From a virus (taxonomy: Duplodnaviria > Caudoviricetes): a DNA stretch of 34,503 bases. Each line of letters starts with the position of its first letter. Within the stretch, counting starts at the first letter, position 1. The position numbers and the translations under genes were made by a program. This document shows positions 440 through 32,406 of this stretch, piece after piece. The notes beneath the pieces are model-generated. The model was not told the origin of the DNA. It searched no databases and saw nothing but the letters and a program-made list of their open reading frames with translations. The stretch lies in the IMG/VR virus record IMGVR_UViG_3300045941_000095, positions 1 through 34,503 of that record; one strand, 5' to 3'.

Positions 440-922
440 TCACTTCTCTCTCAGTGCCATCTGGTGACATTCCGCTAAGCGGTTAAACCATCCTTGCCCG
501 TAGCGAATCACCGAAGGGTGAAGCGCATATTGGAAAGCGCGGCGTGCTACAAACTGCGCCGTGATGTACTCGACATCCGCACGCTGCGCCGCCTGCAAGG
601 TCTCGGTGCCGATAATGCCGTCCTGCTGAACCTTCAGAGCCTCTTGCAGCATCCGGATGGCTTTCCGTGGCCCCTGGTTTACCGCCGAATCAAACAGCAC
701 GAAGCCAATCGGCTGCGGGAAAGAACCGCACTGGCATTGCTGCCAGTAGTCCCGGAAGTAGATGCCCTTCGCGTCCTCGACCGTGAGTTTCGGAATATCC
801 ACATCGGGATATGCCTTCTTCGAGATCCCGAACTTGGTCTCGCCGCCCGAGTCATGGGCATCATTGGAATACCCGCCCTCATGGGCCAGAACAAAGCCGA
901 CTGCACGATCAAATGGGTTCAT
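440..922 (-). CDS. Endolysin, glycoside hydrolase family 108 with C-terminal peptidoglycan-binding region
   Basis: HEGGYSND..DSGGETKFGIS, FDSAVNQG, DGIIG..TL and YGQGWFNR motifs typical of GH108. Confidence 0.93.
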   Translation of the reverse strand: MNPFDRAVGFVLAHEGGYSNDAHDSGGETKFGISKKAYPDVDIPKLTVEDAKGIYFRDYWQQCQCGSFPQPIGFVLFDSAVNQGPRKAIRMLQEALKVQQDGIIGTETLQAAQRADVEYITAQFVARRAFQYALHPSVIRYGQGWFNRLAECHQMALREK

Positions 923-1104
923 CGCCTAAACTCCCAAAGACGTTTCCAAATCTCTCCATGTTCCTCGCGGTTCTCTTCCAGTTCGCGGGTATGCGCCTCC
1001 AATGTCTCCAAAATTCGCCCGACCCTCACGGAGCCGATGACGAGAGCCGCCACACCTACGGCATTAATCGCGAGGTTCAGCCATTGAAGCGCAGTCGCCT
1101 CCAT
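919..1104 (-). CDS. Putative holin (single TM plus charged coiled tail)
   Basis: Hydrophobic LAINAVGVAALVIG, then a highly charged tail; stop overlaps the endolysin start. Confidence 0.55.
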   Translation of the reverse strand: MEATALQWLNLAINAVGVAALVIGSVRVGRILETLEAHTRELEENREEHGEIWKRLWEFRR

Positions 1105-1589
1105 TACTTCACCGTCACCGTTTTTTCAGCGGTCGCCGTCAAGCCTTCGGCGTCCCGCGTTACCGCTCGCCATGTCACGGCGCCCTTTTTCTTGTAGGGC
1201 TGCGTGTTCCAAGTGTAGGTTTTCTGTGTCGTCTCGTCGCCCTCCCAAACCTTCTGCGCGTTGCGGTAGAGTTCGGTCCACACCACGCCCGCATCGTCGG
1301 TCATCTTCAGGAGAATCTTCTGGTTCTTCACCGCAATGACGTTGCCTGGAGGTAGTGCCGGATCGAACGTCATCGTCAGCGTTGGCGGCTTATTCACCGG
1401 GGGCTGCGGTGTCGGGTCCGGAGGAATCGGCGGCAAATTCACGCCCTTCGGCGCGTAGTATGGCGTCCATACGTTCGGCGCCGAGCAGCGATAGAGCACC
1501 TTCACCTGCGTGTCCCAAAAGGCCACGCCGGGAGTGCAGGTTGCGGGCCGCTGCTGAACAATAAGAAGAGCCAGAAGAGCGACTTTCAT
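1104..1589 (-). CDS. Protein with Cys-pair module, Pro-rich linker and C-terminal Ig-like domain
   Basis: Hydrophobic N-terminus; PPIPPDPTPQPP linker; NKPPTLT...AVTRDAEGLTATAEKTVTVK resembles bacterial Ig-like/PKD strands. Confidence 0.65.
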   Translation of the reverse strand: MKVALLALLIVQQRPATCTPGVAFWDTQVKVLYRCSAPNVWTPYYAPKGVNLPPIPPDPTPQPPVNKPPTLTMTFDPALPPGNVIAVKNQKILLKMTDDAGVVWTELYRNAQKVWEGDETTQKTYTWNTQPYKKKGAVTWRAVTRDAEGLTATAEKTVTVK

Positions 1590-2194: not shown

Positions 2195-2956
2195 TTATCT
2201 CCCGTCGTAAGTCGTCACATAGTTCGGGCCGCATTCAAGGCCATAAAGTGCCGTACCGATGAACGCGGGGTCCGCATCATTCAACTGGCTGTAAACCTGC
2301 CGTGCGCCATGCGCCTGAATCTTCAATTCCTGAGTCACGGCCTTGCCGAAAGGCGTACACAGGCGCTCGGCCAGCGTAAACGTCAGCGCATCTTCAAGAG
2401 CGGGGGGCATGTCGATGTTGACCGCAATCGTCGGCGTGTCACCGCCCATCGTGATGGTTTCCAACTGCGAGCCGAAGTACAACTTCAGTTCGTCCGTCAG
2501 CGATACTGGATACGGCAGCGGGTAGATCGTGCCGACCGGGAAGCCGGGGTTGTAGTAGATCCGCAACGGCTGACCGCTTTCCGTTGACGGCAGCGACCAT
2601 GTTTGAAACTCGCGCTTAAAGATGATTGGCAGGTCGATCTCATAGCCGCCCGAGAGTACGAGCTTGGCGCGATTGATGGTTGGAGGCCGCACCGCCGTAC
2701 CCGTGCCCGTAATGATGAAGTCCGCGCCGCTGCCGGTCGGCCCGAGCGTGTAGCCTGTCGCCTTGCTGACAGTCCATGGGAACGACTGCGAGAACTCGAA
2801 ATAACTCATGCGCCCGAGAGCCCGCCAGCGATCAACGATGCGGTTGTAGTGGCTCAAGGCCAGCGCGTTATCTTCCGCGTTCGGCGCAGACTCGCCCGCT
2901 CCCATCCGGTTGATGTCGAGCAGCGCGTTAATGATGATGTCTTGCGGCGAGGGCAA
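2195..2956 (-). CDS. Head-to-tail adaptor, P22 gp4-like
   Basis: QDIIINALLDI...GAGE..P.AED..LAL...N...D.W N-terminus and ALTFTLAERLC.PFG C-terminus; TTG start with GGAGG; position in head module. Confidence 0.75.
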   Translation of the reverse strand: MPSPQDIIINALLDINRMGAGESAPNAEDNALALSHYNRIVDRWRALGRMSYFEFSQSFPWTVSKATGYTLGPTGSGADFIITGTGTAVRPPTINRAKLVLSGGYEIDLPIIFKREFQTWSLPSTESGQPLRIYYNPGFPVGTIYPLPYPVSLTDELKLYFGSQLETITMGGDTPTIAVNIDMPPALEDALTFTLAERLCTPFGKAVTQELKIQAHGARQVYSQLNDADPAFIGTALYGLECGPNYVTTYDGR

Positions 2957-2959
2957 TGC

Positions 2960-3136
2960 CTACCTCCGGCACTTCTTGATTTCGGCTTCGAGTTTCGCAA
3001 TCCGCGAAATCGCATCTAGTAACTGCGATTCAAGGGCCGCAACGGATTCAGCGGTCGCGAAGTTCGGCCCCGACGTCGAGTTCTTGTATTCCTCCACAGC
3101 GCGGGCAGTTTCTTCAGCCGTTTGCTTTTTCCCCAT
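2960..3136 (-). CDS. Small coiled-coil protein, 58 aa
   Basis: Hand translation MGKKQTAEE...ALESQLLDAISRIAKLEAEIKKCRR; TAATG coupling to the upstream gene; AAGGAG RBS. Confidence 0.7.
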   Translation of the reverse strand: MGKKQTAEETARAVEEYKNSTSGPNFATAESVAALESQLLDAISRIAKLEAEIKKCRR

Positions 3137-4806
3137 TAGTTCTCCTTTGCGAGTTCTTTGGAAATCTTTGAATGCTTCTCCGCGAAGTCTTTGTATCCCG
3201 CCATACGGTACGCCATCGACAGCGTTGTGTGCGCCATGCGGTCCTTTGGATGCTCCGCGACAAGGGTTTCAAGTGCGGTCAGTTCTTCAGCATCGCGCCC
3301 CATTTCCTTCAACAGACTCAGGCGGACCCCTCGGGCATAGATCATTTCGGGGTCTAACTTGATGGTCATGTCCACATTCGCCAATGCCCCTTCAAAATTG
3401 CCGCGCTGCGTCTCGCAGAGCGCAATGTATGTGTAAGCCAGCGGTACGGGTACGCCCCGGCGCGCGTGGAACTCCCCGGCTTCACACTTCTGGTTTTCCA
3501 GATAGACCGCTGCGAGGTTCACATGGGCCGCACGGAACGCCGGATAGCGGTCGAGCGTCTTCTGGAGCAGTAATTCCGCATCAGCATGGCGCCTCGCCTT
3601 TATCAAAGCCGCCGAGAGGTTCAACACGGCGCGTTTCTTGGCCGGGTCCTTATCGTGCGCGTCTTGCCAGAGGTCGATCACCGTGGCCCACGCCTGGTTT
3701 CGCTGGACAGTGCCCGCCGCAAGTGCCGCGATAGTCAGGGCCGCGAGCACAGGCGCTAGTCGTAGCCGTTGGAGGCGTCGGCATAGAGCCCCACCCATGA
3801 GCGCGACCCCGAGACCGAGAACATAGGCGCGGTATTCAAAGAGCGGTTCGGCAACAAGGATGACCAAAGCGCCGAGAATCGGGCAGCAGAGCAGGGCCCA
3901 TAGCGCCATTCGGATATCTACGGGTATCTTTTTGGATAGAGCCAGCGCCGCCATCGCGAGAATAATTGCCACCGCCGCGATCCATTGCCGCCCGAAAACC
4001 ATCGCCGGATCAGGAGATAAATGCAGTGGCACCAAAAGATTTCCGAGAGTATGAAAAGCGTATCCATTCAGAACGCCCCGCAAGTGCTCACTGACGGTCG
4101 GCCACGCGCCGTAATTCATGATGAGATCCGGCACGGGCATGATTTCGTTGGATAGCGGCGTATTGAAAATCGTTTGAACGTAAGGGGCCGTGAACATGAT
4201 CCCGACGAGACCGAGAGCGGCAGCACACAGGAGTATTTTCGCCGCCGTCTTATGCCCGTTGATGATGGCATAGCCGAGAAAGAGCGCAGGCGCAATCAGC
4301 GCCTCTTCCTTGCAGAGGACGCCGAGAGCGAGAAAGGCCGGAGTCGCGACCCATTTCCAGATTCCGGGCAACTTCAGCGCCGCGAGCGCCGCAGCGAAGA
4401 CAAACATCGCGGCCATCATGGAACCACGCGCGTAAATGTAGGCCACCGAGGACGAGAAGAACGGATGAACCGCGAACAGGAGAGCCCCGAAGGCCGCAGA
4501 GATTGGATCACCCCCTAACAAGTGGTCAACCAGGAAGAACACCAGCGCCACTGAAACAAGGTGAACGTAGAGATTGACGAGGTGAAACCCGAACGGATTC
4601 GCCCCGCCAATCACGTAATTAATCCAGTAGGTGAAGTACGGCAAAGGCCGATGCGCGATCCCCATTTCGTTCGCGACGAAATCGGTCATGGTTCCTTCAA
4701 GCCAGCCTTGAACCGCCACGTCATCGAACTGAAACGCTCCCGTCAGCGAGTTGGCATAGACCGCCGCCGTAATGACGAGAACAATAGCCAGCAGGGTTGA
4801 CTTCAT
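3136..4806 (-). CDS. TMTC-like GT-C protein glycosyltransferase (multi-TM plus C-terminal TPRs), 556 aa
   Basis: YANSL.G.FQFDD, HRPL, FHLVN...H, LLFAVHP, KE and T.QRN..W.....LW motifs in TMTC order; many hydrophobic segments; TPR-like repeats (AHVNLAAVY, AYTYIAL, AHTTLSMAY); AGGAG RBS and ATGA overlap at 4806. Confidence 0.88.
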   Translation of the reverse strand: MKSTLLAIVLVITAAVYANSLTGAFQFDDVAVQGWLEGTMTDFVANEMGIAHRPLPYFTYWINYVIGGANPFGFHLVNLYVHLVSVALVFFLVDHLLGGDPISAAFGALLFAVHPFFSSSVAYIYARGSMMAAMFVFAAALAALKLPGIWKWVATPAFLALGVLCKEEALIAPALFLGYAIINGHKTAAKILLCAAALGLVGIMFTAPYVQTIFNTPLSNEIMPVPDLIMNYGAWPTVSEHLRGVLNGYAFHTLGNLLVPLHLSPDPAMVFGRQWIAAVAIILAMAALALSKKIPVDIRMALWALLCCPILGALVILVAEPLFEYRAYVLGLGVALMGGALCRRLQRLRLAPVLAALTIAALAAGTVQRNQAWATVIDLWQDAHDKDPAKKRAVLNLSAALIKARRHADAELLLQKTLDRYPAFRAAHVNLAAVYLENQKCEAGEFHARRGVPVPLAYTYIALCETQRGNFEGALANVDMTIKLDPEMIYARGVRLSLLKEMGRDAEELTALETLVAEHPKDRMAHTTLSMAYRMAGYKDFAEKHSKISKELAKEN

Positions 4807-5243
4807 TGACTCCTGCCATAGATCAGGAATCCCGTTACCGCCCCCGTGGCCGTAGTGATACAGAAATCCGGCGTGACGTTCGGTGTGGCGTAATTCGGCG
4901 TCACCTGCCAAATCGGAAGGTAGTGGACGAACGAGATATTACACTCGTCGCACAACCGCATCGCCCCGCCAAGGTTTACCCCGCCGGTGCCGCAGGCCGT
5001 GCCCGTGCCACGACTAAACTGCACGGTCGTTGCCAGCGTGTCCGCTGAGACGACAAAGCCGCAAACGAAGGTTGAGCCGCCAGCAGATCCAGAGACGAGT
5101 ACAGCAGCACTGCCGCTCGCCAACGAAATGGTTGCCGACTGACTACAAACACCCGCCTGCGCTTCGACTACGGGAGTCGGCGCGATGAAGAGAAGACTGA
5201 CGCCGAATGCGAGAATGAGAACTACAGAAAAAAGACGTTTCAC
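4803..5243 (-). CDS. Secreted Ser/Thr/Gly-rich protein with 6 Cys
   Basis: Signal peptide MKRLFSVVLILAFGVSLLFI...VEA|Q; GGAGG RBS. Confidence 0.8.
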   Translation of the reverse strand: MKRLFSVVLILAFGVSLLFIAPTPVVEAQAGVCSQSATISLASGSAAVLVSGSAGGSTFVCGFVVSADTLATTVQFSRGTGTACGTGGVNLGGAMRLCDECNISFVHYLPIWQVTPNYATPNVTPDFCITTATGAVTGFLIYGRSQ

Positions 5244-5253
5244 GAGACCTCCG

Positions 5254-5286
5254 AAAAACTCCGGCCCATCCGAAGACAGGCCGGAA
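5254..5286 (-). terminator. Rho-independent terminator with C(UUCG)G tetraloop
   Basis: Minus strand TCCGGCCTGTC-TTCG-GATGGGCCGGA-GTTTTT, just after the 318-aa gene. Confidence 0.85.
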
Positions 5287-5292
5287 GGATTG

Positions 5293-6249
5293 TTAGAAGG
5301 TGCACATCACCGGCGTTTGGACCGATGTGAACGTGGACGGAACGGTAATCGCCGGAAGAGTTCCGAAGGTTCCCGCTCTCGCGTTCCCTACAATGTCGCC
5401 GTAGGACATCAGCGAACCCGCAAGGCCGAACGTCGCCGTAGCGCCCGTGTTCTGGACGCCGACGAAGTACCTAGCAGGCCCCGTGATAAACCTCGCTGAA
5501 GTGAAGGAAATGTCCCACATCGTTGAGGCTGTGCCGCCGGAGATTCCCGCCGTCGATGCATTCGCCAGCAGGCTTCCCGCGTTGTCGTACAGCGTCACCA
5601 ACGTCAGCGAAGTGCCGACCGTCGCTCCGTTCAGGACCGAGAGACCTGTCACCCAACGGCTGTAGGGAATCTCGATTGAGGACACGTAGACGGTTCCCGC
5701 GCCACCTGTGGTCGAAACCACTGTGGGCGTGAAGTGAAAGTTGCACTCGCGTGGTTCCTGGTGAACCGCATCCGGCAACGTACCTGCCACCCACTTACCG
5801 CCGAGACAGTCCGCCATCGCCACGGCCTGACCGCCGCTAATGACGAAGTTCGGCTGATAGCCCTGAGTGGCACGGGTGCAGGTTCCGGTCGGCTGGCTCT
5901 GAAGGAATACGCCCGAGGAACGTCCGGTGCCTGCATCCCAATTACCGCCAGGACCGAAAACCACAGTTGCGCCCGAAGGATGAGCCACGAGTGGCCCGCC
6001 CCCTTGCGCCTGAAGGGTAATCGTGGTGCCCGAAACGGCGGTCACGCGCCGATAGTCCTTCTCAATCAGGACATAAGCGTTGGTGCCGTTGACGGTAGCC
6101 GCAAAACCCGTGGCACTGGCAACGGTGATTGTAGTTGCGCCCGCTGCCATCGCTCCCGAAAGCGTGGTTCGCACGGGAGCCGATTGCGCGTGGGCCGTTA
6201 CGGTCGCGGCCAGAACGAAGAAAAGCGTGTAGAGTGTTTTCATTTTCAT
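5293..6249 (-). CDS. Thr/Ser/Gly-rich protein with signal peptide, in the capsid-decoration gene position
   Basis: MKMKTLYTLFFVLAATVTAHA|QS; TTLSGAM.AGATTITVASATGF resembles phage beta-strand structural modules; directly follows the coat gene. Confidence 0.8.
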   Translation of the reverse strand: MKMKTLYTLFFVLAATVTAHAQSAPVRTTLSGAMAAGATTITVASATGFAATVNGTNAYVLIEKDYRRVTAVSGTTITLQAQGGGPLVAHPSGATVVFGPGGNWDAGTGRSSGVFLQSQPTGTCTRATQGYQPNFVISGGQAVAMADCLGGKWVAGTLPDAVHQEPRECNFHFTPTVVSTTGGAGTVYVSSIEIPYSRWVTGLSVLNGATVGTSLTLVTLYDNAGSLLANASTAGISGGTASTMWDISFTSARFITGPARYFVGVQNTGATATFGLAGSLMSYGDIVGNARAGTFGTLPAITVPSTFTSVQTPVMCTF

Positions 6250-6260
6250 GGTTTTTCTCC

Positions 6261-7535
6261 TTACGCCCCGATTGCGGTAACAGCCGAAGAGGTGTCACCG
6301 AGCAGTTTGCCGAAGCCAATGCAGCAGTCGGCTCTCCACCGCCATTCGAGTGTTTCCGGCACGTACCAGCCGAGGATGGCGATATTGATTCCGGTGTCGG
6401 GATCAATGTAGCTGGACACCGTTTCAAAGCTGCCTTTCTTCGGGCTCGGGACTTTCGCGCCGACGATGGCAAACGCATCGTTGGTGAACGTGACGCCCAT
6501 CTTTCCGCTCTTCGCCGTCGCGTCGGTCATCGTGTACCCGTCATTGAAGGTCACCGCGTCCAGAGCAACAGGAAGCCGGGAAATGTTCTGATAGGGGTTG
6601 CCGGGGCCAAACAACGGCTCAACCAGGGGCACCGTCACGACGTTCGCCGCAGCGGTATAGGTCTGACCGGGATCGCCCGCAACTGTCAGGTGACGCCTGC
6701 GGAAGAGCGAGGCCCGCGTGAAGGGGTTCACGTCTTCGCAGTTTGCGACCGTGATGTAGTCGCCAGCCTTGATCGTGTCGCCCGTGGCGCAGCCGAGAAC
6801 GATGCTGGTATCGCCGTCCACCGAGGACACGCTGACCGTGATGGAAGCAACGGTGGCAATGACGCCCGTGGTGTGGGAGTAGAGCGACATGGTTGTGCCG
6901 ATGTCGTAACCGGAATAGCGCCCGATGACGCCTTCCGTAAAAATCCGCTCGCCATTCGCCGCGTTGAACAGGTTGATGGCGTTCGGCGTACCGGACACCA
7001 TGGAACGATGCGATTCGGGCGAAATGTACATTCCGGCTCGCAGTTTCCCGTTCTTTCCGTCCTTCTCGTCGATGCGGGTTGTGGCCGAACCGAACGTGTC
7101 GAACGAAGTTGGCGTGGTGCCGAGAACGCCGACGTGCATGGTCGTGTTCAGGGCGATGAAGCGAGCCGCCCGCAGGTCGATTTCCTGCGCGAGCTGCGCG
7201 GCAAGAGGCGCGAAGAGGTTCTTTTCCCGCGCTTCGTCCGTGCGCTCCATTTCAAACATTTGCTCACCAACGCCGGCTTGCAGCGGAATGTGGAAATGCT
7301 GGAAGGGGCCAACAGTCGCCCACTTGCGTTCGATGTTCGCGCCAGTCCACAGGGAACCGTCAACGACGGCGCCGCGAAGCGGCTTCTTGACGCGAAGTGT
7401 TTGCCCGATGGGTTCGGCTTTGTCCTCGAACTCCATCTCAAACTTTTTGGTCATTTTGTCGGCAATCATCAGGTTGTTTTTCACAAGCCTGACGATCTTG
7501 GCCGACACTTTGTCGGTATAAACATGAGTAGCCAT
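6261..7535 (-). CDS. Major capsid protein, P22 coat (gp5)-like
   Basis: 424 aa; IGQTLRVKKP, LAAQLAQEID, G.IGRYSGYD, DAFAIV and WRADCCIGF motifs; follows the scaffold. Confidence 0.9.
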   Translation of the reverse strand: MATHVYTDKVSAKIVRLVKNNLMIADKMTKKFEMEFEDKAEPIGQTLRVKKPLRGAVVDGSLWTGANIERKWATVGPFQHFHIPLQAGVGEQMFEMERTDEAREKNLFAPLAAQLAQEIDLRAARFIALNTTMHVGVLGTTPTSFDTFGSATTRIDEKDGKNGKLRAGMYISPESHRSMVSGTPNAINLFNAANGERIFTEGVIGRYSGYDIGTTMSLYSHTTGVIATVASITVSVSSVDGDTSIVLGCATGDTIKAGDYITVANCEDVNPFTRASLFRRRHLTVAGDPGQTYTAAANVVTVPLVEPLFGPGNPYQNISRLPVALDAVTFNDGYTMTDATAKSGKMGVTFTNDAFAIVGAKVPSPKKGSFETVSSYIDPDTGINIAILGWYVPETLEWRWRADCCIGFGKLLGDTSSAVTAIGA

Positions 7536-7552: not shown

Positions 7553-8635
7553 CTAACGCCTCAAAGCGGCAAGCTCGCGCTCATTTTCCAGACGCATCGC
7601 TTCAGTCAAGTACCTGTGGTCCCCTGTGCGGTCGTAAGCCGCGTAGGCTTCCTTCAAGGGGTCGCCGGAGGCAGAGGTATTCGCGCTGATGCGAGTTCCA
7701 GGCGCGGGAGCAGCCGTAACGGTTATCGGTTTAGGATTCGGAGCCGGAGCGGCAGGAGGCTTGATGAGTTTTTGCATCTCAAACTTGGCAGTCGCCCGCT
7801 TTTCTCCTAAGAGGTAAAGCGCACGGTCGCGGTTCTCGACCAAAAGTTTGTCGAAATTCGGAATGTCGGTCAGGGCCTTAATCCGCTCGCCGGCCTCTTT
7901 TGTGAGGTTCGGCACGTAATCGAGCCCATCCGGGTCATACCGGATAACGTGGTTCATCGCCAGGGATGCGGGAAAGTCCTCCGAGAAGTACGGCGCGGAT
8001 TTGATGTTCCGCGCTTCAACGCGGGCCTCAAATTTTGCCGTTTCGCGGTCAGCCTCGGATGTGGCGCGGAAGGCTTGAAGTTTCGACTCGGCTACCTGCT
8101 CGAAATAATCGGCAAGCGCCTCGGAATAGGCTTCATTCTTCGCGTCCCACTCTTCAGCGGTCTCATGGCCGGTCATTTTGGGCGGCTTGGGCCGCTGCAA
8201 TGCCGTTGTCGGTGCCTTAACTTCTGCTTTGGGCGCGGGAGCGGTCTCCGCAGGTTTACTCGCATATTGCTCGCGCAGGAGTTTCAGTTCGGCCTTGAGT
8301 TCAGCGTTTTGGCGTGTCTTTCGGGCAAACGCCTGACGCTGTTTCCGTTGCTGCTCGGGGGTTCCGTAATACTCCGGTTCGTGGTCCTCTTCCTCGCCGG
8401 GGCCTTGTTCCGGCTTAACTTCTGCCTGTTGGGGCAAAGGCTCTTGTGGCGTATCGGGCTCCGGTGGGGGAGTTGCCGTGACTTCTTTCGGTTTCGGTTC
8501 TTCGCCGGTCTTGTCCCAATGTGACCTCTCTTCGGGAGTCCATGAATTCATGACCTCCGCGAAAGACGAGGGCTCAACGGGTGCGATAGGCTCAGGTGCG
8601 GCGACGTTTTCCGCAGTGATAACGTCTTCGGGCAT
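7553..8635 (-). CDS. Capsid scaffolding protein
   Basis: Acidic, Pro-rich N-terminus with coiled-coil segments; lies between portal and coat; AAGGAG RBS. Confidence 0.8.
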   Translation of the reverse strand: MPEDVITAENVAAPEPIAPVEPSSFAEVMNSWTPEERSHWDKTGEEPKPKEVTATPPPEPDTPQEPLPQQAEVKPEQGPGEEEDHEPEYYGTPEQQRKQRQAFARKTRQNAELKAELKLLREQYASKPAETAPAPKAEVKAPTTALQRPKPPKMTGHETAEEWDAKNEAYSEALADYFEQVAESKLQAFRATSEADRETAKFEARVEARNIKSAPYFSEDFPASLAMNHVIRYDPDGLDYVPNLTKEAGERIKALTDIPNFDKLLVENRDRALYLLGEKRATAKFEMQKLIKPPAAPAPNPKPITVTAAPAPGTRISANTSASGDPLKEAYAAYDRTGDHRYLTEAMRLENERELAALRR

Positions 8636-8765: not shown

Positions 8766-10961
8766 CTACTCGCCAGTCCCGTTCTGGCTTGCGGCGGCGG
8801 CTTCTCGATCCGCTGCGCTTTCCTGCGAAGCATGCTGGCGGTCGGCGCTAGCCTGCTCCCCTTTATGCGATAAATCCCTCGACTGCATCAATAACTTTTC
8901 TTGAATTTCGAGTTTCTTTAACTCCATTTGCTTGCCGATCATCGCCATTTCAAACGCCTGTTGATCGTCCTGAAGCATCTTCTTCAGTTGGTACTCGCGC
9001 TCCAAGAGCGCCATTTTCCCTTGGTTATCAACAACTTTCCCCTGCTTCTCGTCTTCGAGTTCGATGACCTTCTGTTGCAGTTCTTCGCCGTGAGCATTCA
9101 ACGCCTGCGCCATGCCCTTCAACTGCTCAATTGCCGCAACCGCGTGCGGAGGAGTCGGCTCCTGCTGGCCTTCGGGATCGGCATATGCGGCCTGTACCGG
9201 AGGCGGCTGAAGCGCCGTCGCCACCTTAATCATTTTGTCGCCAACGGGGCCCAGGTTCTTCAATTGAATGATGAGTGGCGAAAGCGGATTGGTCAGGAGT
9301 TCCGGATTCTTCGTCAGTAACTCCGCAAACTTCTGAGCATCGACCATCTGACTGACGGAATCCGGCCCCGTGGAGATCGTCACGCTGTGACCTTCCGGTG
9401 GGCCGTAAGGATGCGGCTGATCCGGATACGGCGTAATCTTCTCGCTCTTGTACTTCCCGTCTTTCGTCTGAAATCCGACCGTGCGCTCGGAATCTTCGAT
9501 GTACGCGAGCAACTCATTCTCAATGCGGCCCTCGAACTCAATCGCGGAGAGGTAGGAGTCGATGAAATGGAAATTGTTGGTATCCGCCGCTGCGTCAATC
9601 TTATCCTGCGCCACGCCGGACTCGCTCTGCCGCTGCTTTTGGTCCACACCCGTCATTCCCGCCGCGTTTTGAGCATCGCGAATGAAACTGTTCCGGGCGA
9701 CCTCGTAACCTTCAATTTGCGCCTGAAAGAGAATCTCTTTCGGCTGCTGGACCTGGTTCCCCTGCTCATCGCGCTCGTGGTACTTCAGGTAGGCTTGCGG
9801 GTTCCGGTGCGCCAGCTTCCATTGCGTTTCGTAGCCTTCGATGGCCTTATCGGAAACCATGATCTTGGATTTCGTGGACATGCCGAACTGTTCAAGTTCG
9901 CCCGCAACGGAAACGTCGAAATTCAGGTTCGGCTCGCGAAGTTTGCGCGTCAGGGACTCAATGACGAGTTCGTCACCTTCGTATTTCTCGCGCCCAACAC
10001 AGGTCGGAAACGGAATCGTTGATCCGGGCCAAGGCTTTTTCTCGAAAATCTGAAACCCGTTGGTGAAATACTGGCAAACCTTCTTAGATGTGCCTTCGCG
10101 CTCGTCTTCAAGCGGGAATTGCTGGCCCTGAGAGTCGGTAATGGTGTCGCCGTCTAATTTGAGTCCCTTTGACTCAAGTTCGGACTCAAAGCAGCCTTCA
10201 GAATTCCCGCCAAAGAACAGGACGCGCTCCTTTTGCTCCTCCACCTTCCAGTATTCGGCAAACATGATGGAATCAGGCCGGAGCCATGCCGTGACGGAGA
10301 CGGACTCAGCGGCGGAAAACCCCTGAATCTCGACATCCGGGTCTTTCATGTTCTTCCAGCGGCGTTTTGCCTCGGATTTCGTAATCCACTGCGTTGCGAG
10401 TAACTGCTTCCGGTCGCTGCGATCCGCTTCCTGACAATCGGGGTCATCTAAGATGGAATTCGGATTCGGGATGCGCTTAACGACGATTTTCAGGTTACGC
10501 GAACGCGGCGAGGCATACTCCGTATCCACGCGCCAGTAGCCGATACCACGATCCACAGAGTTCTGGAGCGCCGTCAACCGGGCCTGAGACGCATGAGACT
10601 CGTAGGAGATCCCGCGAATGCGATCTTCGCGCCGTTCCGCTGTTTTCTTGTCCGCGCCTTCGCCGTTAGGGATGACATCTACGCCGCGAGGGTTCATCCG
10701 CGCCTGGTTCACGACGCGATTGTTGTACGGGGAAATAATGTCGGTGTGGCCGCAGGGGCGCGGGTTCTCAACCTTCGAGTACTTGCCACGCGCTTCAAGT
10801 TCCTCTTTCGGCCATGGGCCATCAACGGAAAGCGCAATCATGTCAAGATCCGCTTCACGGCGGTTCTTCTCAGAACGCTTCCAGGCGTAATCTCGGAACT
10901 CGCGAATTTCCTTCAGGATCTCGTCTTCGTTCGAGATCGAATTGGTTTCACCCTTCGGCAA
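8766..10961 (-). CDS. Portal protein, P22 gp1-like
   Basis: 731 aa; RPC, VVNQAR.N, GIGYWRV.T.Y, DPD....DRSD and ESG.A motifs; long C-terminal coiled coil (barrel). Confidence 0.92.
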   Translation of the reverse strand: MPKGETNSISNEDEILKEIREFRDYAWKRSEKNRREADLDMIALSVDGPWPKEELEARGKYSKVENPRPCGHTDIISPYNNRVVNQARMNPRGVDVIPNGEGADKKTAERREDRIRGISYESHASQARLTALQNSVDRGIGYWRVDTEYASPRSRNLKIVVKRIPNPNSILDDPDCQEADRSDRKQLLATQWITKSEAKRRWKNMKDPDVEIQGFSAAESVSVTAWLRPDSIMFAEYWKVEEQKERVLFFGGNSEGCFESELESKGLKLDGDTITDSQGQQFPLEDEREGTSKKVCQYFTNGFQIFEKKPWPGSTIPFPTCVGREKYEGDELVIESLTRKLREPNLNFDVSVAGELEQFGMSTKSKIMVSDKAIEGYETQWKLAHRNPQAYLKYHERDEQGNQVQQPKEILFQAQIEGYEVARNSFIRDAQNAAGMTGVDQKQRQSESGVAQDKIDAAADTNNFHFIDSYLSAIEFEGRIENELLAYIEDSERTVGFQTKDGKYKSEKITPYPDQPHPYGPPEGHSVTISTGPDSVSQMVDAQKFAELLTKNPELLTNPLSPLIIQLKNLGPVGDKMIKVATALQPPPVQAAYADPEGQQEPTPPHAVAAIEQLKGMAQALNAHGEELQQKVIELEDEKQGKVVDNQGKMALLEREYQLKKMLQDDQQAFEMAMIGKQMELKKLEIQEKLLMQSRDLSHKGEQASADRQHASQESAADREAAAASQNGTGE

Positions 10962-11568: not shown

Positions 11569-13137
11569 TCAGGAATAGGCCGAAGCGGGTGTGTATCCGG
11601 GCTCCTGCTGCATAGTAAGCCTTCTGGCGGCAACTTCGGGCAGGACCACCTCCATGTAGGTGCTCATAATCAGGGAATCCAGTTCGTCAGTGGACCGCCC
11701 GAGCCGCTTCTTCATTTCCGCCTTCTCTTCAAACTGGAGCGGGATGTACCGCTTCGGCATGATATGCCGCATATCCATCGCGAGCTTCTTCGACTCATCG
11801 ATCGAGCCGCCATTCTGAAGCAACTGAAGGAATCGCTCCATCATCATGGCCTTGACGTTCTTCCACTTCGCGGGATTCATGGAATGCCCGTTCCAGTTGA
11901 CCTCAATGATGTTCTTGATGCCTAAATACCGCAACCGGGTACACACGGGCGCCGAGATTCCCGAAGAATCCGTGAACAGCATTTGAACCTTAACAGGCTT
12001 ATTCGCTCCCGCCGGCTTGTAATCCTTCGTCATGATCTCGCCCAACTTCGCAATCATGAACTCGGGTTCCCGTGTCTGCTCTCCCGGTATGATAATCGGC
12101 GGGATCGACCACATATCCAGTCCATGCCGGAAGCGCACCACGTTTGAGTCATCGCCGCCCCAGGCCGCATCCCACGTGGCGATTAAGGCATCGTCGGGAA
12201 GGCCCTTATTTTTTGCCGTCTGAGACTTCCGGATTAAATCCTCATCGAAGTACTGCGCCGCGTTCGATTTCGGGGGCAGGCCGAGAATCCACACGCGCAC
12301 GTAGTCGGAGTCAATCCCGTATTCCTTGATCGCCTCGCTGAGTTCCTCTTTATTGGGAAATCGGCAGGTCCGGGAGTCAATGGATTTTGCTTTCCAGTGA
12401 CCAAAGGCATACTTCCCCGACAGGGCATCCGCGAAAAACCCGGTCGCCATCGTCGCATTGCCGCGTGCCAGCGCAACCGGGAGGCCGGTCGTCAATCCCG
12501 AGAGCGCCACCTCCGCAATCTTGTCGGGGATCTCCGAGGACTCATCGAAAATAATCATGTTCACGGAGCCGATGTTCTGCTGACCGGCGGATGCCTGCGG
12601 ATTCTCCAGGTTCCATGTAATCGGCACCGCAAACCACGAGTCGCGGGCGCCAAGACGGTAGATGATGCTCGAATTCGCTTCAAACCAGTGCGCGACGACC
12701 GATCGGCGCATCCACTTGCGGATCTCCGGCCACGTTTTCGTCGCCAACTGATCCCCGGAGTTCGCCATGACGGTAATTTTTGCGTCAGGCCATGCCGCGA
12801 GCATGATTGTGACCGTCATCCCCACGTCGGCGCTCTTGCCGATCCCGCGCCCTGATCCCACAACGCGCAGGATCTTTTTCACCGAATCGACGCCATTGAA
12901 GTTCGAGGCCCGCATGTCTTCGCCCAATTCGCGAAGTTCGGTCAATTGCCATTCGTCAGGCTGCTCCACGCCAGATAGTTCGCCCTCGCCCCATTCCCAA
13001 AGAATCATGACAAGGCGCTCGGGATACCACTTATTTTCGGCAATTGCTTGAAGGAGTCGCTCGTCGTCAGGGCCCGATGAAGCAGGAAGTTTCTCAGGTC
13101 CAGAGAAGGCGTCAGGCGGTATAGAGCGTTCTATCAT
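11569..13137 (-). CDS. terL: Terminase large subunit
   Basis: Walker A GSGRGIGKS, Walker B IIFDES, coupling motif GNA, nuclease D.A.GGDD and RSTDELD. Confidence 0.95.
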   Translation of the reverse strand: MIERSIPPDAFSGPEKLPASSGPDDERLLQAIAENKWYPERLVMILWEWGEGELSGVEQPDEWQLTELRELGEDMRASNFNGVDSVKKILRVVGSGRGIGKSADVGMTVTIMLAAWPDAKITVMANSGDQLATKTWPEIRKWMRRSVVAHWFEANSSIIYRLGARDSWFAVPITWNLENPQASAGQQNIGSVNMIIFDESSEIPDKIAEVALSGLTTGLPVALARGNATMATGFFADALSGKYAFGHWKAKSIDSRTCRFPNKEELSEAIKEYGIDSDYVRVWILGLPPKSNAAQYFDEDLIRKSQTAKNKGLPDDALIATWDAAWGGDDSNVVRFRHGLDMWSIPPIIIPGEQTREPEFMIAKLGEIMTKDYKPAGANKPVKVQMLFTDSSGISAPVCTRLRYLGIKNIIEVNWNGHSMNPAKWKNVKAMMMERFLQLLQNGGSIDESKKLAMDMRHIMPKRYIPLQFEEKAEMKKRLGRSTDELDSLIMSTYMEVVLPEVAARRLTMQQEPGYTPASAYS

Positions 13138-14549: not shown

Positions 14550-15242
14550 TTACGAACCACTACAGGATGTTGGATCGTCGCCCGTTTGTGGTGCACTTTC
14601 CTTCTCGCTCGCGCTCTCTTCAGGTATGCCCGACCCCAACATCTTGTGGTCCACTACAGGTTGTGCTTGGGCCGGAATGACGCGCTGCATTCTCTTCAAT
14701 GCCGCATCCACCTTGCGTGCTCGTTCGGCTGTCACGACTGTGATGTTGACGTCCCCATGCTTTTGCTGCTCTTTGAAGGCATCGACTGCCTTAAGCTTAC
14801 CTAACATCTCCCACGCTTTCTCGCGAGGCAGCGTCTTGATGATCTTCTTCCTTCCGACCTGATCCCACGATGCGCTATCGCCATCCTTAGATGGCACCAT
14901 GTTGGGTGCGTCCGTAATCTCAACGCCACCTTGGCGAGCCCATAGCGGCCACTCGTGAATTGGTTTCAGTTCGCCGGATTCGTCATACAGGTCCGCAACA
15001 TCGCCGCGTAATCGTTCGGTTGCTGCTTCGTGGAGCTCGATAGCGTCTGCGAGGCCGACAGAGAGCGCGTGATTCACGGCTCGCGCTTGCAGTTCCTCAA
15101 GAACGCGCTTAACTTCGCCGTGTTCGATAGCCTCACCTGCGTGAGTTTCCATCCATTTCGGTAGTCCCGCTTTGCGAATCGCGGTTGCCATACCGGAACC
15201 CTTGAGGCGTTCGGCAATGTAGCGAGCTTCGCGGTAGGTCAC
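14550..15242 (-). CDS. terS: Terminase small subunit
   Basis: N-terminal A.RKAG HTH-like region, DVADLYDESGELKPIHEWP and KAWEMLGK typical of TerS; upstream of terL. Confidence 0.8.
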   Translation of the reverse strand: MTYREARYIAERLKGSGMATAIRKAGLPKWMETHAGEAIEHGEVKRVLEELQARAVNHALSVGLADAIELHEAATERLRGDVADLYDESGELKPIHEWPLWARQGGVEITDAPNMVPSKDGDSASWDQVGRKKIIKTLPREKAWEMLGKLKAVDAFKEQQKHGDVNITVVTAERARKVDAALKRMQRVIPAQAQPVVDHKMLGSGIPEESASEKESAPQTGDDPTSCSGS

Positions 15243-15247
15243 GCTTC

Positions 15248-15276
15248 ATTATTGAAACGTAGCCGTGAATTGTCAA
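15248..15276 (-). promoter_or_regulatory. Sigma70-type promoter for terS (leaderless transcript)
   Basis: TTGACA-17-AATAAT, ending 5 nt before the GTG; no RBS. Confidence 0.65.
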
Positions 15277-15386
15277 ATGATTGAAGAATTGGCCTGCGGC
15301 AGCAAGGAAGCTTGGAAAGAAAAAACGCATTCCTCGGGGTTCCGCGTCCTTGCGGGATGGAGGGTAGCACGGCATGGAAGTATTTG

Positions 15387-15776
15387 CTAGGGTTTGGTTT
15401 TTTGGTGCCGTTCAATGATCTTGCGAATGAGAGACAGGTTTACGTCGCGGGAGACGCGTCTGGTTGCGCGGATAGACACGGTTTTCTTGACGACGGTCCG
15501 ATTGTATTTAGGCTTTAACTCATAGATAAGTCTACGCTCCAGTGTGTTAGCGTCGGCCTCAGAACTGCAGCAAATGAATTCAATCTCATGGCAGGACTCA
15601 CGGACATCACTACGATGGTGTACGCGCCCAAGTGGCCGATCAATTCCGTGATAACTACTGCCGATGTATAGCGGCTTTCCCTGCCGATCCCGAAAGATGT
15701 AAACCAATGGCGAGGTAGCGCGATTCAATTGGTCCCGAGTCCACGTGAAACACTTGCGGCTTTCCATGTAGTCCAT
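15387..15776 (-). CDS. GIY-YIG nuclease family protein
   Basis: LVYIF.....PLYIGSS, R..HH and LERRLI.ELKPKYN (UvrC N-terminal-like); TATAAT 6 nt upstream of ATG 15776. Confidence 0.85.
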   Translation of the reverse strand: MDYMESRKCFTWTRDQLNRATSPLVYIFRDRQGKPLYIGSSYHGIDRPLGRVHHRSDVRESCHEIEFICCSSEADANTLERRLIYELKPKYNRTVVKKTVSIRATRRVSRDVNLSLIRKIIERHQKTKP

Positions 15777-17098: not shown

Positions 17099-17413
17099 AT
17101 GAAGGTTTCCGTTTCGCAGACGATTAACTGCGCCCATCAGTTGCCGAGAACAGAACTGCATGGGCATACGTATCGCGTGATAGTCATTGCCGAGTCTTTC
17201 TTGGGCGTTGACGGGCGAGCCATTCCGTTCGAGGACCTAAGACGTGAATTGGAGCGTATTGCATACAAAGTCGATCACCGCCAACTTGAAACAGTGATCG
17301 GAGAACCGGCCACTGCCGAGCGTTTGGCCTTATGGTTCCGCGACCAGTTCTCACGGCGACCCTTAACCGTTCGAGTTGAAGTCGGCGATGGCGGCTGGGT
17401 GGAGACGGAATGA
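17099..17413 (+). CDS. queD: QueD/PTPS-like T-fold protein (divergent)
   Basis: AH.LP, LHGHTY.V, VDH..L and ATAERLA.W motifs. Confidence 0.82.
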   Translation: MKVSVSQTINCAHQLPRTELHGHTYRVIVIAESFLGVDGRAIPFEDLRRELERIAYKVDHRQLETVIGEPATAERLALWFRDQFSRRPLTVRVEVGDGGWVETE

Positions 17414-31396: not shown

Positions 31397-31585
31397 CTAA
31401 AAGTAATCTTCGATCTTCTTTTTAAACTCTGGCGTTGCTACAACCTCATCCAGTAAATCGCCCGCCGCGCCAGTGATAGAAACGCCTCTCACTGTGGCGA
31501 GCACCGCCAGCATTGCCCGAGTCTTCGGGTTAATCAGCATGTTGACTGACAGAAGAACCTTATCCTTGGGTTGTTTTTCCTTCAT
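31397..31585 (-). CDS. Small ribbon-helix-helix-like DNA-binding protein
   Basis: Beta-like SVNMLI then helix...GVSI...helix; ATGA overlap. Confidence 0.5.
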   Translation of the reverse strand: MKEKQPKDKVLLSVNMLINPKTRAMLAVLATVRGVSITGAAGDLLDEVVATPEFKKKIEDYF

Positions 31586-32406
31586 ACAGACACCCTGATC
31601 CGAAAGGGATGGTCTTGCTCCAGCCCGAGATTGATTTGCACCACAGCCGAATTGCAGGCGGACGGAGGCAAGCTGGCCTGCTCCGCATAGTTGCCCCTAG
31701 TAATTCCGGCAACGCGATGCCCGACCACAGCGGACTTCGAGAAGCCCGCACAGTTCACTAAAAACACGTCCCGGTGTTCAAGTTTCATGCGCTTATAGAC
31801 GGGATACGGGCGCGACAGTCGAGCGCCAGCGTTCTTACAGTTATGTCCCATCATGTAAACCTCGGAGCCGGGGAAGCCTGCCGACAGGTGGTAAAGCTTG
31901 TTCAGTCCGGCGCCGGGAAGCACGCCGCCGCCATTCCCGTGCAGGTGGAAGAAGCTCGCCGCCGCCTGCGGAACGTGCGCGAGTCCGGTCGTCCCGATGA
32001 ACAGGTCTTCACTGCCGAGCAGCTTGCAGAGTTCCTGATCGGAGGTCCTTCCGCCGTATTCGTTGTAATGGTGGCCTTCGCCAAGGGCTATCCAGCGGCC
32101 CTTCGTATGCTTTAAATGCTTCTCGAAGAGTTCGGCATTAAGTTCGAGGCACTTATTCCAAAGTACCTCCATGGCCGTGTCATAGATACCGGAGGCTGCG
32201 ATTTTCCGGCGATTGGAAGGTGAGAGCGGGTCGATGTAATCACCGAGACCGATGTAGTAGGCCCCCATAGAGCCCGAGTAGTCAATGAAGCGCGAGAGTT
32301 GATCGTTGGCTGTGATTCCATTCTTGCCGGTCCATTGGATGTCTCCAATACCGGCAACGGTGAAGACTTTCTGGTTCTTGGGGATGCGGAAGGTTCTTAA
32401 TTCCAC
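31582..32406 (-). CDS. Calcineurin-like metallophosphoesterase (divergent)
   Basis: GD.Q, GLGDYID, EGHH, HG and MGH.C in the order of the five metallophosphoesterase motifs. Confidence 0.72.
   Translation of the reverse strand: MELRTFRIPKNQKVFTVAGIGDIQWTGKNGITANDQLSRFIDYSGSMGAYYIGLGDYIDPLSPSNRRKIAASGIYDTAMEVLWNKCLELNAELFEKHLKHTKGRWIALGEGHHYNEYGGRTSDQELCKLLGSEDLFIGTTGLAHVPQAAASFFHLHGNGGGVLPGAGLNKLYHLSAGFPGSEVYMMGHNCKNAGARLSRPYPVYKRMKLEHRDVFLVNCAGFSKSAVVGHRVAGITRGNYAEQASLPPSACNSAVVQINLGLEQDHPFRIRVSV

Follow-up and report, generated by a model that had tools for sequence, protein, structure and literature searches.

A leader-bearing gene lies directly behind the coat gene

The window, that is, the whole stretch of 34,503 nt that was analysed, is part of a podophage. 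A gene for a 318-aa protein with a leader occupies the place directly after its P22-like coat gene. The features of this region are as follows.

440..922, minus strand, GH108 endolysin without an N-terminal hydrophobic segment (PF05838, E 2.2e-24)
1104..1589, minus strand, 161-aa gene with a short N-terminal hydrophobic stretch and a domain 2-like, Cys-bracketed motif
2195..2956, minus strand, probable head-tail adaptor, no leader (phrog_12985)
3136..4806, minus strand, TMTC-like GT-C glycosyltransferase, 556 aa (PMT_2, E 1.9e-6, above cut-off)
4803..5243, minus strand, second leader-bearing gene, 146 aa, six Cys in the mature part, between terminator and glycosyltransferase
5254..5286, minus strand, terminator-like hairpin with a C(UUCG)G loop and a T5 tail, directly 3' of the 5293-6249 gene
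5293..6249, minus strand, leader-bearing post-coat gene, 318 aa, ATG start, mature part 297 aa
5296..5766, minus strand, domain 3 (residues 162-318), predicted CBM-like beta-sandwich with a C169/C316 pair
5782..5898, minus strand, domain 2 (residues ~118-156), predicted three-strand linker with C124 and C148 flanking
5899..6186, minus strand, domain 1 (residues ~22-117), predicted small beta-barrel of the tail-tip protein, tail tube or coat insertion domain kind
6187..6249, minus strand, Sec/SPI-type signal peptide (residues 1-21), predicted cut between AHA and Q; Q22 invariant in 24/24
6257..6262, minus strand, AAGGAG ribosome-binding site of the 5293-6249 gene, overlapping the coat TAA
6261..7535, minus strand, P22-like coat, no leader (PF11651, E 2.3e-7, above cut-off; phrog_283, E 2e-27)
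7553..8635, minus strand, probable scaffolding protein (position and composition; no family match)
8766..10961, minus strand, P22-like portal (PF16510, E 1.4e-77)
11569..13137, minus strand, terminase large subunit (phrog_2, E 3.6e-19)

The same phage is represented by a longer record (L001, G001; 46.6 kb), whose additional ~12 kb, absent from the window, encode the nozzle (phrog_578), an ejection protein (phrog_598) and two further genes with leaders. Three full-length relatives come from contigs assigned to MAGs of Terriglobales and Bryobacteraceae; these contigs may be phage DNA that was binned with them. The hosts of the family are probably Acidobacteriota; L084 (unpublished genome G005) was treated as one locus in all counts, and the host assignment draws on L085 and L086 as well. 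Elsewhere in the window, the ORF at 17099-17413 (plus strand), next to phrog_15826, carries what we take to be a QueD-like motif and may be part of a 7-deazaguanine DNA modification set. The ORF at 31582-32406 (minus strand), located after the ejection genes, presumably has metallophosphoesterase-like motifs and gave no family match above the cut-off.

The 318-aa gene starts 11 nt after the coat stop with its own AAGGAG, as the preliminary description of this DNA had noted. Its N-terminus reads MKMK, then TLYTLFFVLAATV, then TAHA, followed after the predicted cut by QSAPV. The signal-peptide N-terminus claimed earlier was borne out as a three-part leader composed of a basic n-region, an h-region with a best 9-residue hydropathy of 2.7, and A-x-A before Q22. 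Sequence inspection found neither a lipobox Cys at +1 nor a twin-arginine motif, the first Cys being residue 124. Ser and Thr make up 23% of the mature part, which has Cys at 124, 148, 169 and 316.

Slot, leader and cysteine pairs are conserved in the family

The 318-aa protein has 28 close matches and, at E 1e-30 or below, 327 cluster representatives; IMG/VR holds 177 matches, of which the best 80 of 177 were fetched for locus comparison. Among 62 distinct loci with the coat in view, the family gene starts 20 nt or less from the coat stop in 20, 21-110 nt from it in 40 and more than 110 nt from it in 2, which places it in a fixed post-coat slot (110 nt or less) in 60/62 loci. In L061 (9923-10895) the family gene is split over two frames, which may be an assembly error. 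In L060 (8605) and L008 (8718), the coat reading frame continues upstream of its usual start with a hydrophobic stretch that is similar in the two loci and probably not translated.

Leaders were called with our own pattern rule, not SignalP, and the same rule, anchored at the expected start, was applied to all genes. A leader is present in all 61 distinct family loci by this rule and in 3 of 178 core virion genes (coat 2/53, portal 0/33, terminase 1/17, adaptor 0/75), counts to be read with the visible false positives of the rule (the P0025 group and internal starts). A looser count of 63/63 was dropped for the anchored rule since it picked up internal starts. The cleavage site, small-x-small before Gln, is near-invariant across the family, and an internal start near Q22 backed by a Shine-Dalgarno (SD) sequence was found in none of the 62 loci checked.

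The cysteines behave as pairs. C124 and C148 are both present in 113 of 114 aligned proteins, and a second pair occurs at alternative positions, 169/316 in 57 of them, 189/264 in 36 and 204/246 in 9. No pair is ever half-filled among these 114 proteins, and 120 of 122 full-length proteins with a leader have an even Cys count. In four homologues that have domains 1 and 3 but no leader, the 124/148 pair is missing as well. The presence of the leader in every locus, the strict pairing of cysteines and the joint loss of leader and Cys pair give good support to export to an oxidising compartment, and on these sequence grounds the 318-aa protein is very probably exported.

A predicted three-domain fold with a mobile C-terminal module

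Searches of Pfam and NCBIfam found no family for the 318-aa protein, and PHROGs returned weak domain-1 matches only. In the ESM Atlas the nearest clusters are viral and unnamed (top score 0.89), which we take as a lead only. The predicted structure (pLDDT 85.5) consists of a barrel at residues 22-117, a three-strand linker and a sandwich at 162-318. Domain 1 has sequence-level matches to tail-tip proteins (8vjh_A, E 1.9e-8; 8rk3_o, E 1.1e-4) and fold matches to tail tubes and coat insertion domains (9n71, Z 9.6; 9in6_M, Z 9.6; 2m5s, Z 7.0). The Cys-bracketed motif of domain 2 type is common to the 161-aa gene at 1104-1589 and to a spike-like gene of the same phage (L089:1169-5725); as a pattern, it matched 13 leader-bearing ORFs and one other.

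The best structural match of domain 3 is a capsid chain of cyanophage A4, chain Z (Foldseek E 1e-5; Z 15.8, rmsd 3.1, 150 aligned residues, 13% identity). Chain Z (PDB 9jwb) appears to be gp25, judging from its length and fold together with section 6 of PMC12002296; the available part of that paper describes gp25 as a trimeric CBM-bearing cement at the three-fold axes. Domain 3 also matches the Bxb1 tail tip (Z 12.8) and forms the end of many tailspikes, leaderless ones included. It is therefore a mobile virion-surface module that marks 'virion surface' and not 'capsid'.

In L106, L107, L087 and L088, a leaderless gene with this domain fills the same slot, directly after a P22-like coat; there the domain is fused to a short N-terminal segment resembling the one in the post-coat gene of phage P26218. 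A tree built from 47 chosen C-domains shows rows with and without a leader intermingled, and well-supported branches force at least four leader changes. Five unrelated phages also have a leader gene that ends in domain 3 directly after a presumed head gene. Their coats match phrog_10 in two loci and phrog_7231 in one, and have no match in two. These genes, which encode proteins of 434-577 aa, are the following.

L115:7056-8453, leader gene ending in domain 3
L117:2125-3462, leader gene ending in domain 3
L119:7098-8402, leader gene ending in domain 3
L121:2469-3776, leader gene ending in domain 3
L122:6708-8441, leader gene ending in domain 3

In addition, the phage of L078 has, besides its family gene, another leader-bearing gene that contains both the linker and the C-terminal domain (14762-15535).

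A terminator-like hairpin follows the leader gene in many relatives

The hairpin behind the 318-aa gene (5286-5259) has 12 pairs, and the 65-nt fold reaches -25.2 kcal/mol with a z of -2.9. A single site of this kind is not above chance alone (15 found vs 14.9 expected in 12 kb). Among relatives, 31 of 64 loci have a terminator-like site no more than 90 nt behind the family gene, compared to 4/64 in a control stretch inside the gene and 0/42 in coat-gene gaps longer than 25 nt. Slot spacing and these counts indicate that the order coat, leader gene, terminator is a family trait. The preliminary description had placed a UUCG terminator after this gene and not after the coat, and the recurrence of the layout among relatives agrees with it. 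Its account of the stretch from the terminator to the glycosyltransferase stood for the terminator and overlooked the leader-bearing 146-aa gene in between.

From this layout, we infer that the 318-aa gene is expressed at capsid level; readthrough past the hairpin may give a lower level of the glycosyltransferase, as the preliminary description had proposed. Four soil metatranscriptome runs contain pieces of the phage as short contigs, one of which spans the hairpin; such contigs cannot rank genes. A hairpin without a U-tract is frequent in coat-gene gaps of 51-99 nt (for example L030:9933-10001 and L069:9862-9914) and could tune the ratio of coat to decoration.

A second leader-bearing gene and a glycosyltransferase

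The domain of the 146-aa protein (model pLDDT 43) recurs in leader-bearing genes of other family loci. The glycosyltransferase at 3136-4806 most likely starts at 4806, overlapping the stop of the preceding gene, and consists of an N-terminal GT-C domain with ~7 TM segments and an FDD motif, whose acidic DD we take to be a GT-C glycosyltransferase signature, followed by C-terminal TPRs. Five close relatives of the enzyme share 43-62% with it. The order of the post-coat gene, the 146-aa gene and the glycosyltransferase is kept in L124 and partly in L123. None of the 64 other distinct family loci from IMG/VR and MAGs has the enzyme, and 51 of these loci have at least 2.5 kb downstream. We rejected the glycosyltransferase as a core part of the system since it is confined to a small subclade; it is accessory and subclade-specific.

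TMTC-like GT-C enzymes work outside the cytoplasm, so only exported proteins could be their substrates. Both leader-bearing neighbours of the enzyme have 23% Ser+Thr. It is tempting to speculate that in this subclade the periplasm-facing enzyme O-glycosylates exported Ser/Thr-rich parts, although we regard this as doubtful.

Leaders on other virion-type genes

The 318-aa protein is not the only virion-type protein with a leader. The genes and blocks concerned, all outside the window, are as follows.

L001:16176-16949, tail fibre with leader, 257 aa, same phage
L089:1169-5725, spike-like protein with leader, 1518 aa, 26 Cys, same phage
L096:10371-23028, leader-gene block of Tunturi 1 (PP887698)
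L126:4803-17745, leader-gene block of Tunturi 2 (PP885685)

In the tail fibre of the same phage, the leader is followed by a tailspike head-binding domain of the cyanophage Pam1 type and then by a fibre tip. The domain also occurs in relatives; its profile matches 9vyg (E 1e-11) and 7eeq, annotated as 'Tailspike head-binding domain' (E 8.8e-10). It was placed via PDB searches, as PF09008 (P22 head-binding) gave no match in the 5 records searched. Where such a particle-binding domain is N-terminal in family loci, a leader precedes it in 12/12 cases; in four outside phages, which also seeded the profile, it begins at residue 1 and a leader is found in 0/4. The 1518-aa tailspike has an internal copy of this domain and a leader as well.

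The same phage also encodes a leaderless 385-aa fibre-like gene, so leaderless host-recognition parts may exist beside the exported ones, and this counts against the decoration reading considered below. Its nozzle (phrog_578; L089:5729-8659) is unusually long (976 aa) and has 16 Cys and no leader, so Cys richness alone is not diagnostic.

Tunturi 1 and 2, two cultured Acidobacteriota phages, have leaders on gp12, 13, 14, 16 and 17 in the tail block, and four of these five genes have 10-34 Cys. Neither phage has a leader on the coat, the post-coat gene, the adaptor or the nozzle, and the leaderless post-coat gene was counted against the decoration reading. A host-wide leader artefact was rejected, since none of the structural-region genes read in Tunturi 3 (29 genes) and Tunturi 4 (22 genes) has a leader. 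The main text of the describing paper, as far as available, does not contain the term 'signal peptide' (PMC11924767).

In Cellulophaga phage phi18:3 (NC_021794), gp085-gp087 carry clear Sec-type leaders with Gln at +1, and the record notes them as 'structural' from MS/MS; they are 3 of the 12 MS/MS-annotated proteins in the stretch examined. This is a data-level precedent for leader-bearing proteins in tailed-phage preparations. The three proteins differ from the 318-aa protein in having a Bacteroidota host, few cysteines and a place outside the post-coat slot. They are also non-homologous to the family and could have co-purified, which again weighs against the decoration reading.

A proposed late addition of an exported decoration protein

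With moderate confidence, we read the 318-aa protein as an exported, disulfide-bonded capsid decoration that is added at lysis. The preliminary description had proposed an abundant component that matures in the periplasm and is attached after lysis. The export half of that proposal is now well supported, and a decoration role is supported by the slot, the fold and the leaderless slot-mates. The gene would be co-transcribed with the coat up to the hairpin, and its product would be exported through Sec and cleaved to an N-terminal Gln22. Two disulfides, 124-148 and 169-316, would form in the periplasm, and the protein would probably be a trimer by analogy with A4 gp25. The mature protein would wait in the periplasm, meet the finished heads of the cytoplasm via holin lesions in the inner membrane and bind to their outside as a decoration at lysis, where it might serve in sugar binding or head stability.

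In holin-endolysin lysis, an endolysin without an export signal needs large holin holes. The GH108 endolysin of this phage has no such signal, which implies large inner-membrane lesions. Late addition would be physically ordinary, given that phage L Dec binds mature P22 capsids in vitro (PMC7602432, available part), and attachment to capsids after lysis is plausible.

The most serious alternative, though an unlikely one, is that the protein is exported and disulfide-bonded but never enters the particle, being instead a lectin, periplasmic or released, that is made late and in abundance and might act as a receptor decoy, block superinfection or aid spread through soil biofilm. The leader and the cysteines fit this equally well. 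Leader-bearing non-virion genes are known in structural operons, such as lambda Lom among tail genes (PMC12309495, as far as available). The protein also has a leader and a beta-barrel where an N-terminal coat anchor would be, and the anchor-like segment of its slot-mates does not align with it, which speaks against decoration. Furthermore, searches of phage isolates with the 318-aa protein found no family member and gave weak domain-1 matches in cyanophages only, and a relative used as query gave no match, which also counts against the decoration reading.

On the other side, the gene does not look like a moron. The gap of 20 nt or less in 20/62 loci lacks room for a promoter, and no sigma-70-like site was found at the 318-aa gene itself. 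Its composition is not atypical (GC3 0.69, coat 0.75), its presence is not patchy and its slot is fixed. The leaderless occurrence of domain 3 in this very slot, and the export of proteins with a recognised particle-binding domain, also argue against a protein that stays outside the particle.

Next, the protein might be exported and part of the virion, but as a short fibre of the tail or neck and not on the capsid shell. Domain 1 resembles tail-tip and tail-tube domains in sequence and fold, and domain 3 ends tailspikes and matches the Bxb1 tail tip. However, the place before a putative step-down hairpin suggests a high copy number, the top fold match is a capsid chain and domain 1 resembles coat insertion domains too, so we consider this placement improbable. 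It is just as hard to believe that the leader is unused for export, being a membrane anchor, cleaved off in the cytoplasm or skipped through an internal start, and that the protein is an ordinary cytoplasmic decoration: 14/62 loci have an in-frame ATG or GTG between -4 and +7 codons from the Gln and the 318-aa gene has GTG26 and ATG34, but an SD match was found at 0/14 such internal starts vs 35/62 leader starts, and the near-invariant cleavage site and perfect cysteine pairing speak for use of the leader.

Comparison with known systems and a possible two-compartment assembly

Filamentous phage coat proteins have leaders, and their particles are built at the membrane without lysis. Filamentous coats and Lom share the use of host export with the 318-aa protein; Lom is a host outer-membrane protein and not part of the particle, unlike the decoration proposed here.

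Among decoration proteins, the auxiliary cement gp25 of A4 (A-4L; probably 9jwb chain Z; PMC12002296) shares the CBM-like beta-sandwich, the podophage setting and, as proposed here, the outer capsid position. In the available part of that paper gp25 has an N-anchor on the capsid, whereas the 318-aa protein combines a leader with a beta-barrel, a Cys-bracketed linker and paired cysteines. The protein is cement- or decoration-like but does not have the cytoplasmic, anchor-bearing build, and it is therefore outside the gp25 family. Phage L Dec shares the setting of a P22-like coat; it attaches to heads only once these are expanded or mature, and addition in vitro is possible, according to the accessible portions of PMC6449081 and PMC7602432. 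Dec is composed of an OB-fold and a beta-helix spike and is not among the listed fold matches of the 318-aa protein. In the text available of the decoration review PMC7602432, the word 'signal' has no match and no leader of Dec is mentioned. The literature listings searched, which lie outside most subscription papers and the phi18:3 proteomics, show no report of exported structural parts of tailed phages.

Tailed-phage particles are generally taken as finished in the cytoplasm before lysis. Our observations suggest a wider reading, on which we are evenly divided as a whole, of assembly in two compartments. The core, the nozzle and the ejection proteins would be built in the reducing cytoplasm. 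An outer kit of capsid decoration, fibres and tailspikes would pass through host Sec, become disulfide-bonded, be glycosylated in some lineages by a phage membrane enzyme, and be fitted on finished particles between holing of the inner membrane and rupture of the cell. This route would exist in at least two head lineages, with several gains or losses.

If true, the exported head decoration and tailspikes of a large soil phage family would represent a final assembly step at lysis, and disulfide-bonded, possibly glycosylated virion surfaces would become possible. The annotation of leader-bearing phage genes, usually read as host-envelope accessories, would change accordingly. The export route is directly testable in Tunturi 1 and 2, plaque-forming isolates that each have five genes of this kind. 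A further leader, with AQA before the Gln, was observed in a proteobacterial podophage, on gene 24 of Rhodoferax phage P26218 (L097:13715-14224), just after a leaderless tailspike.
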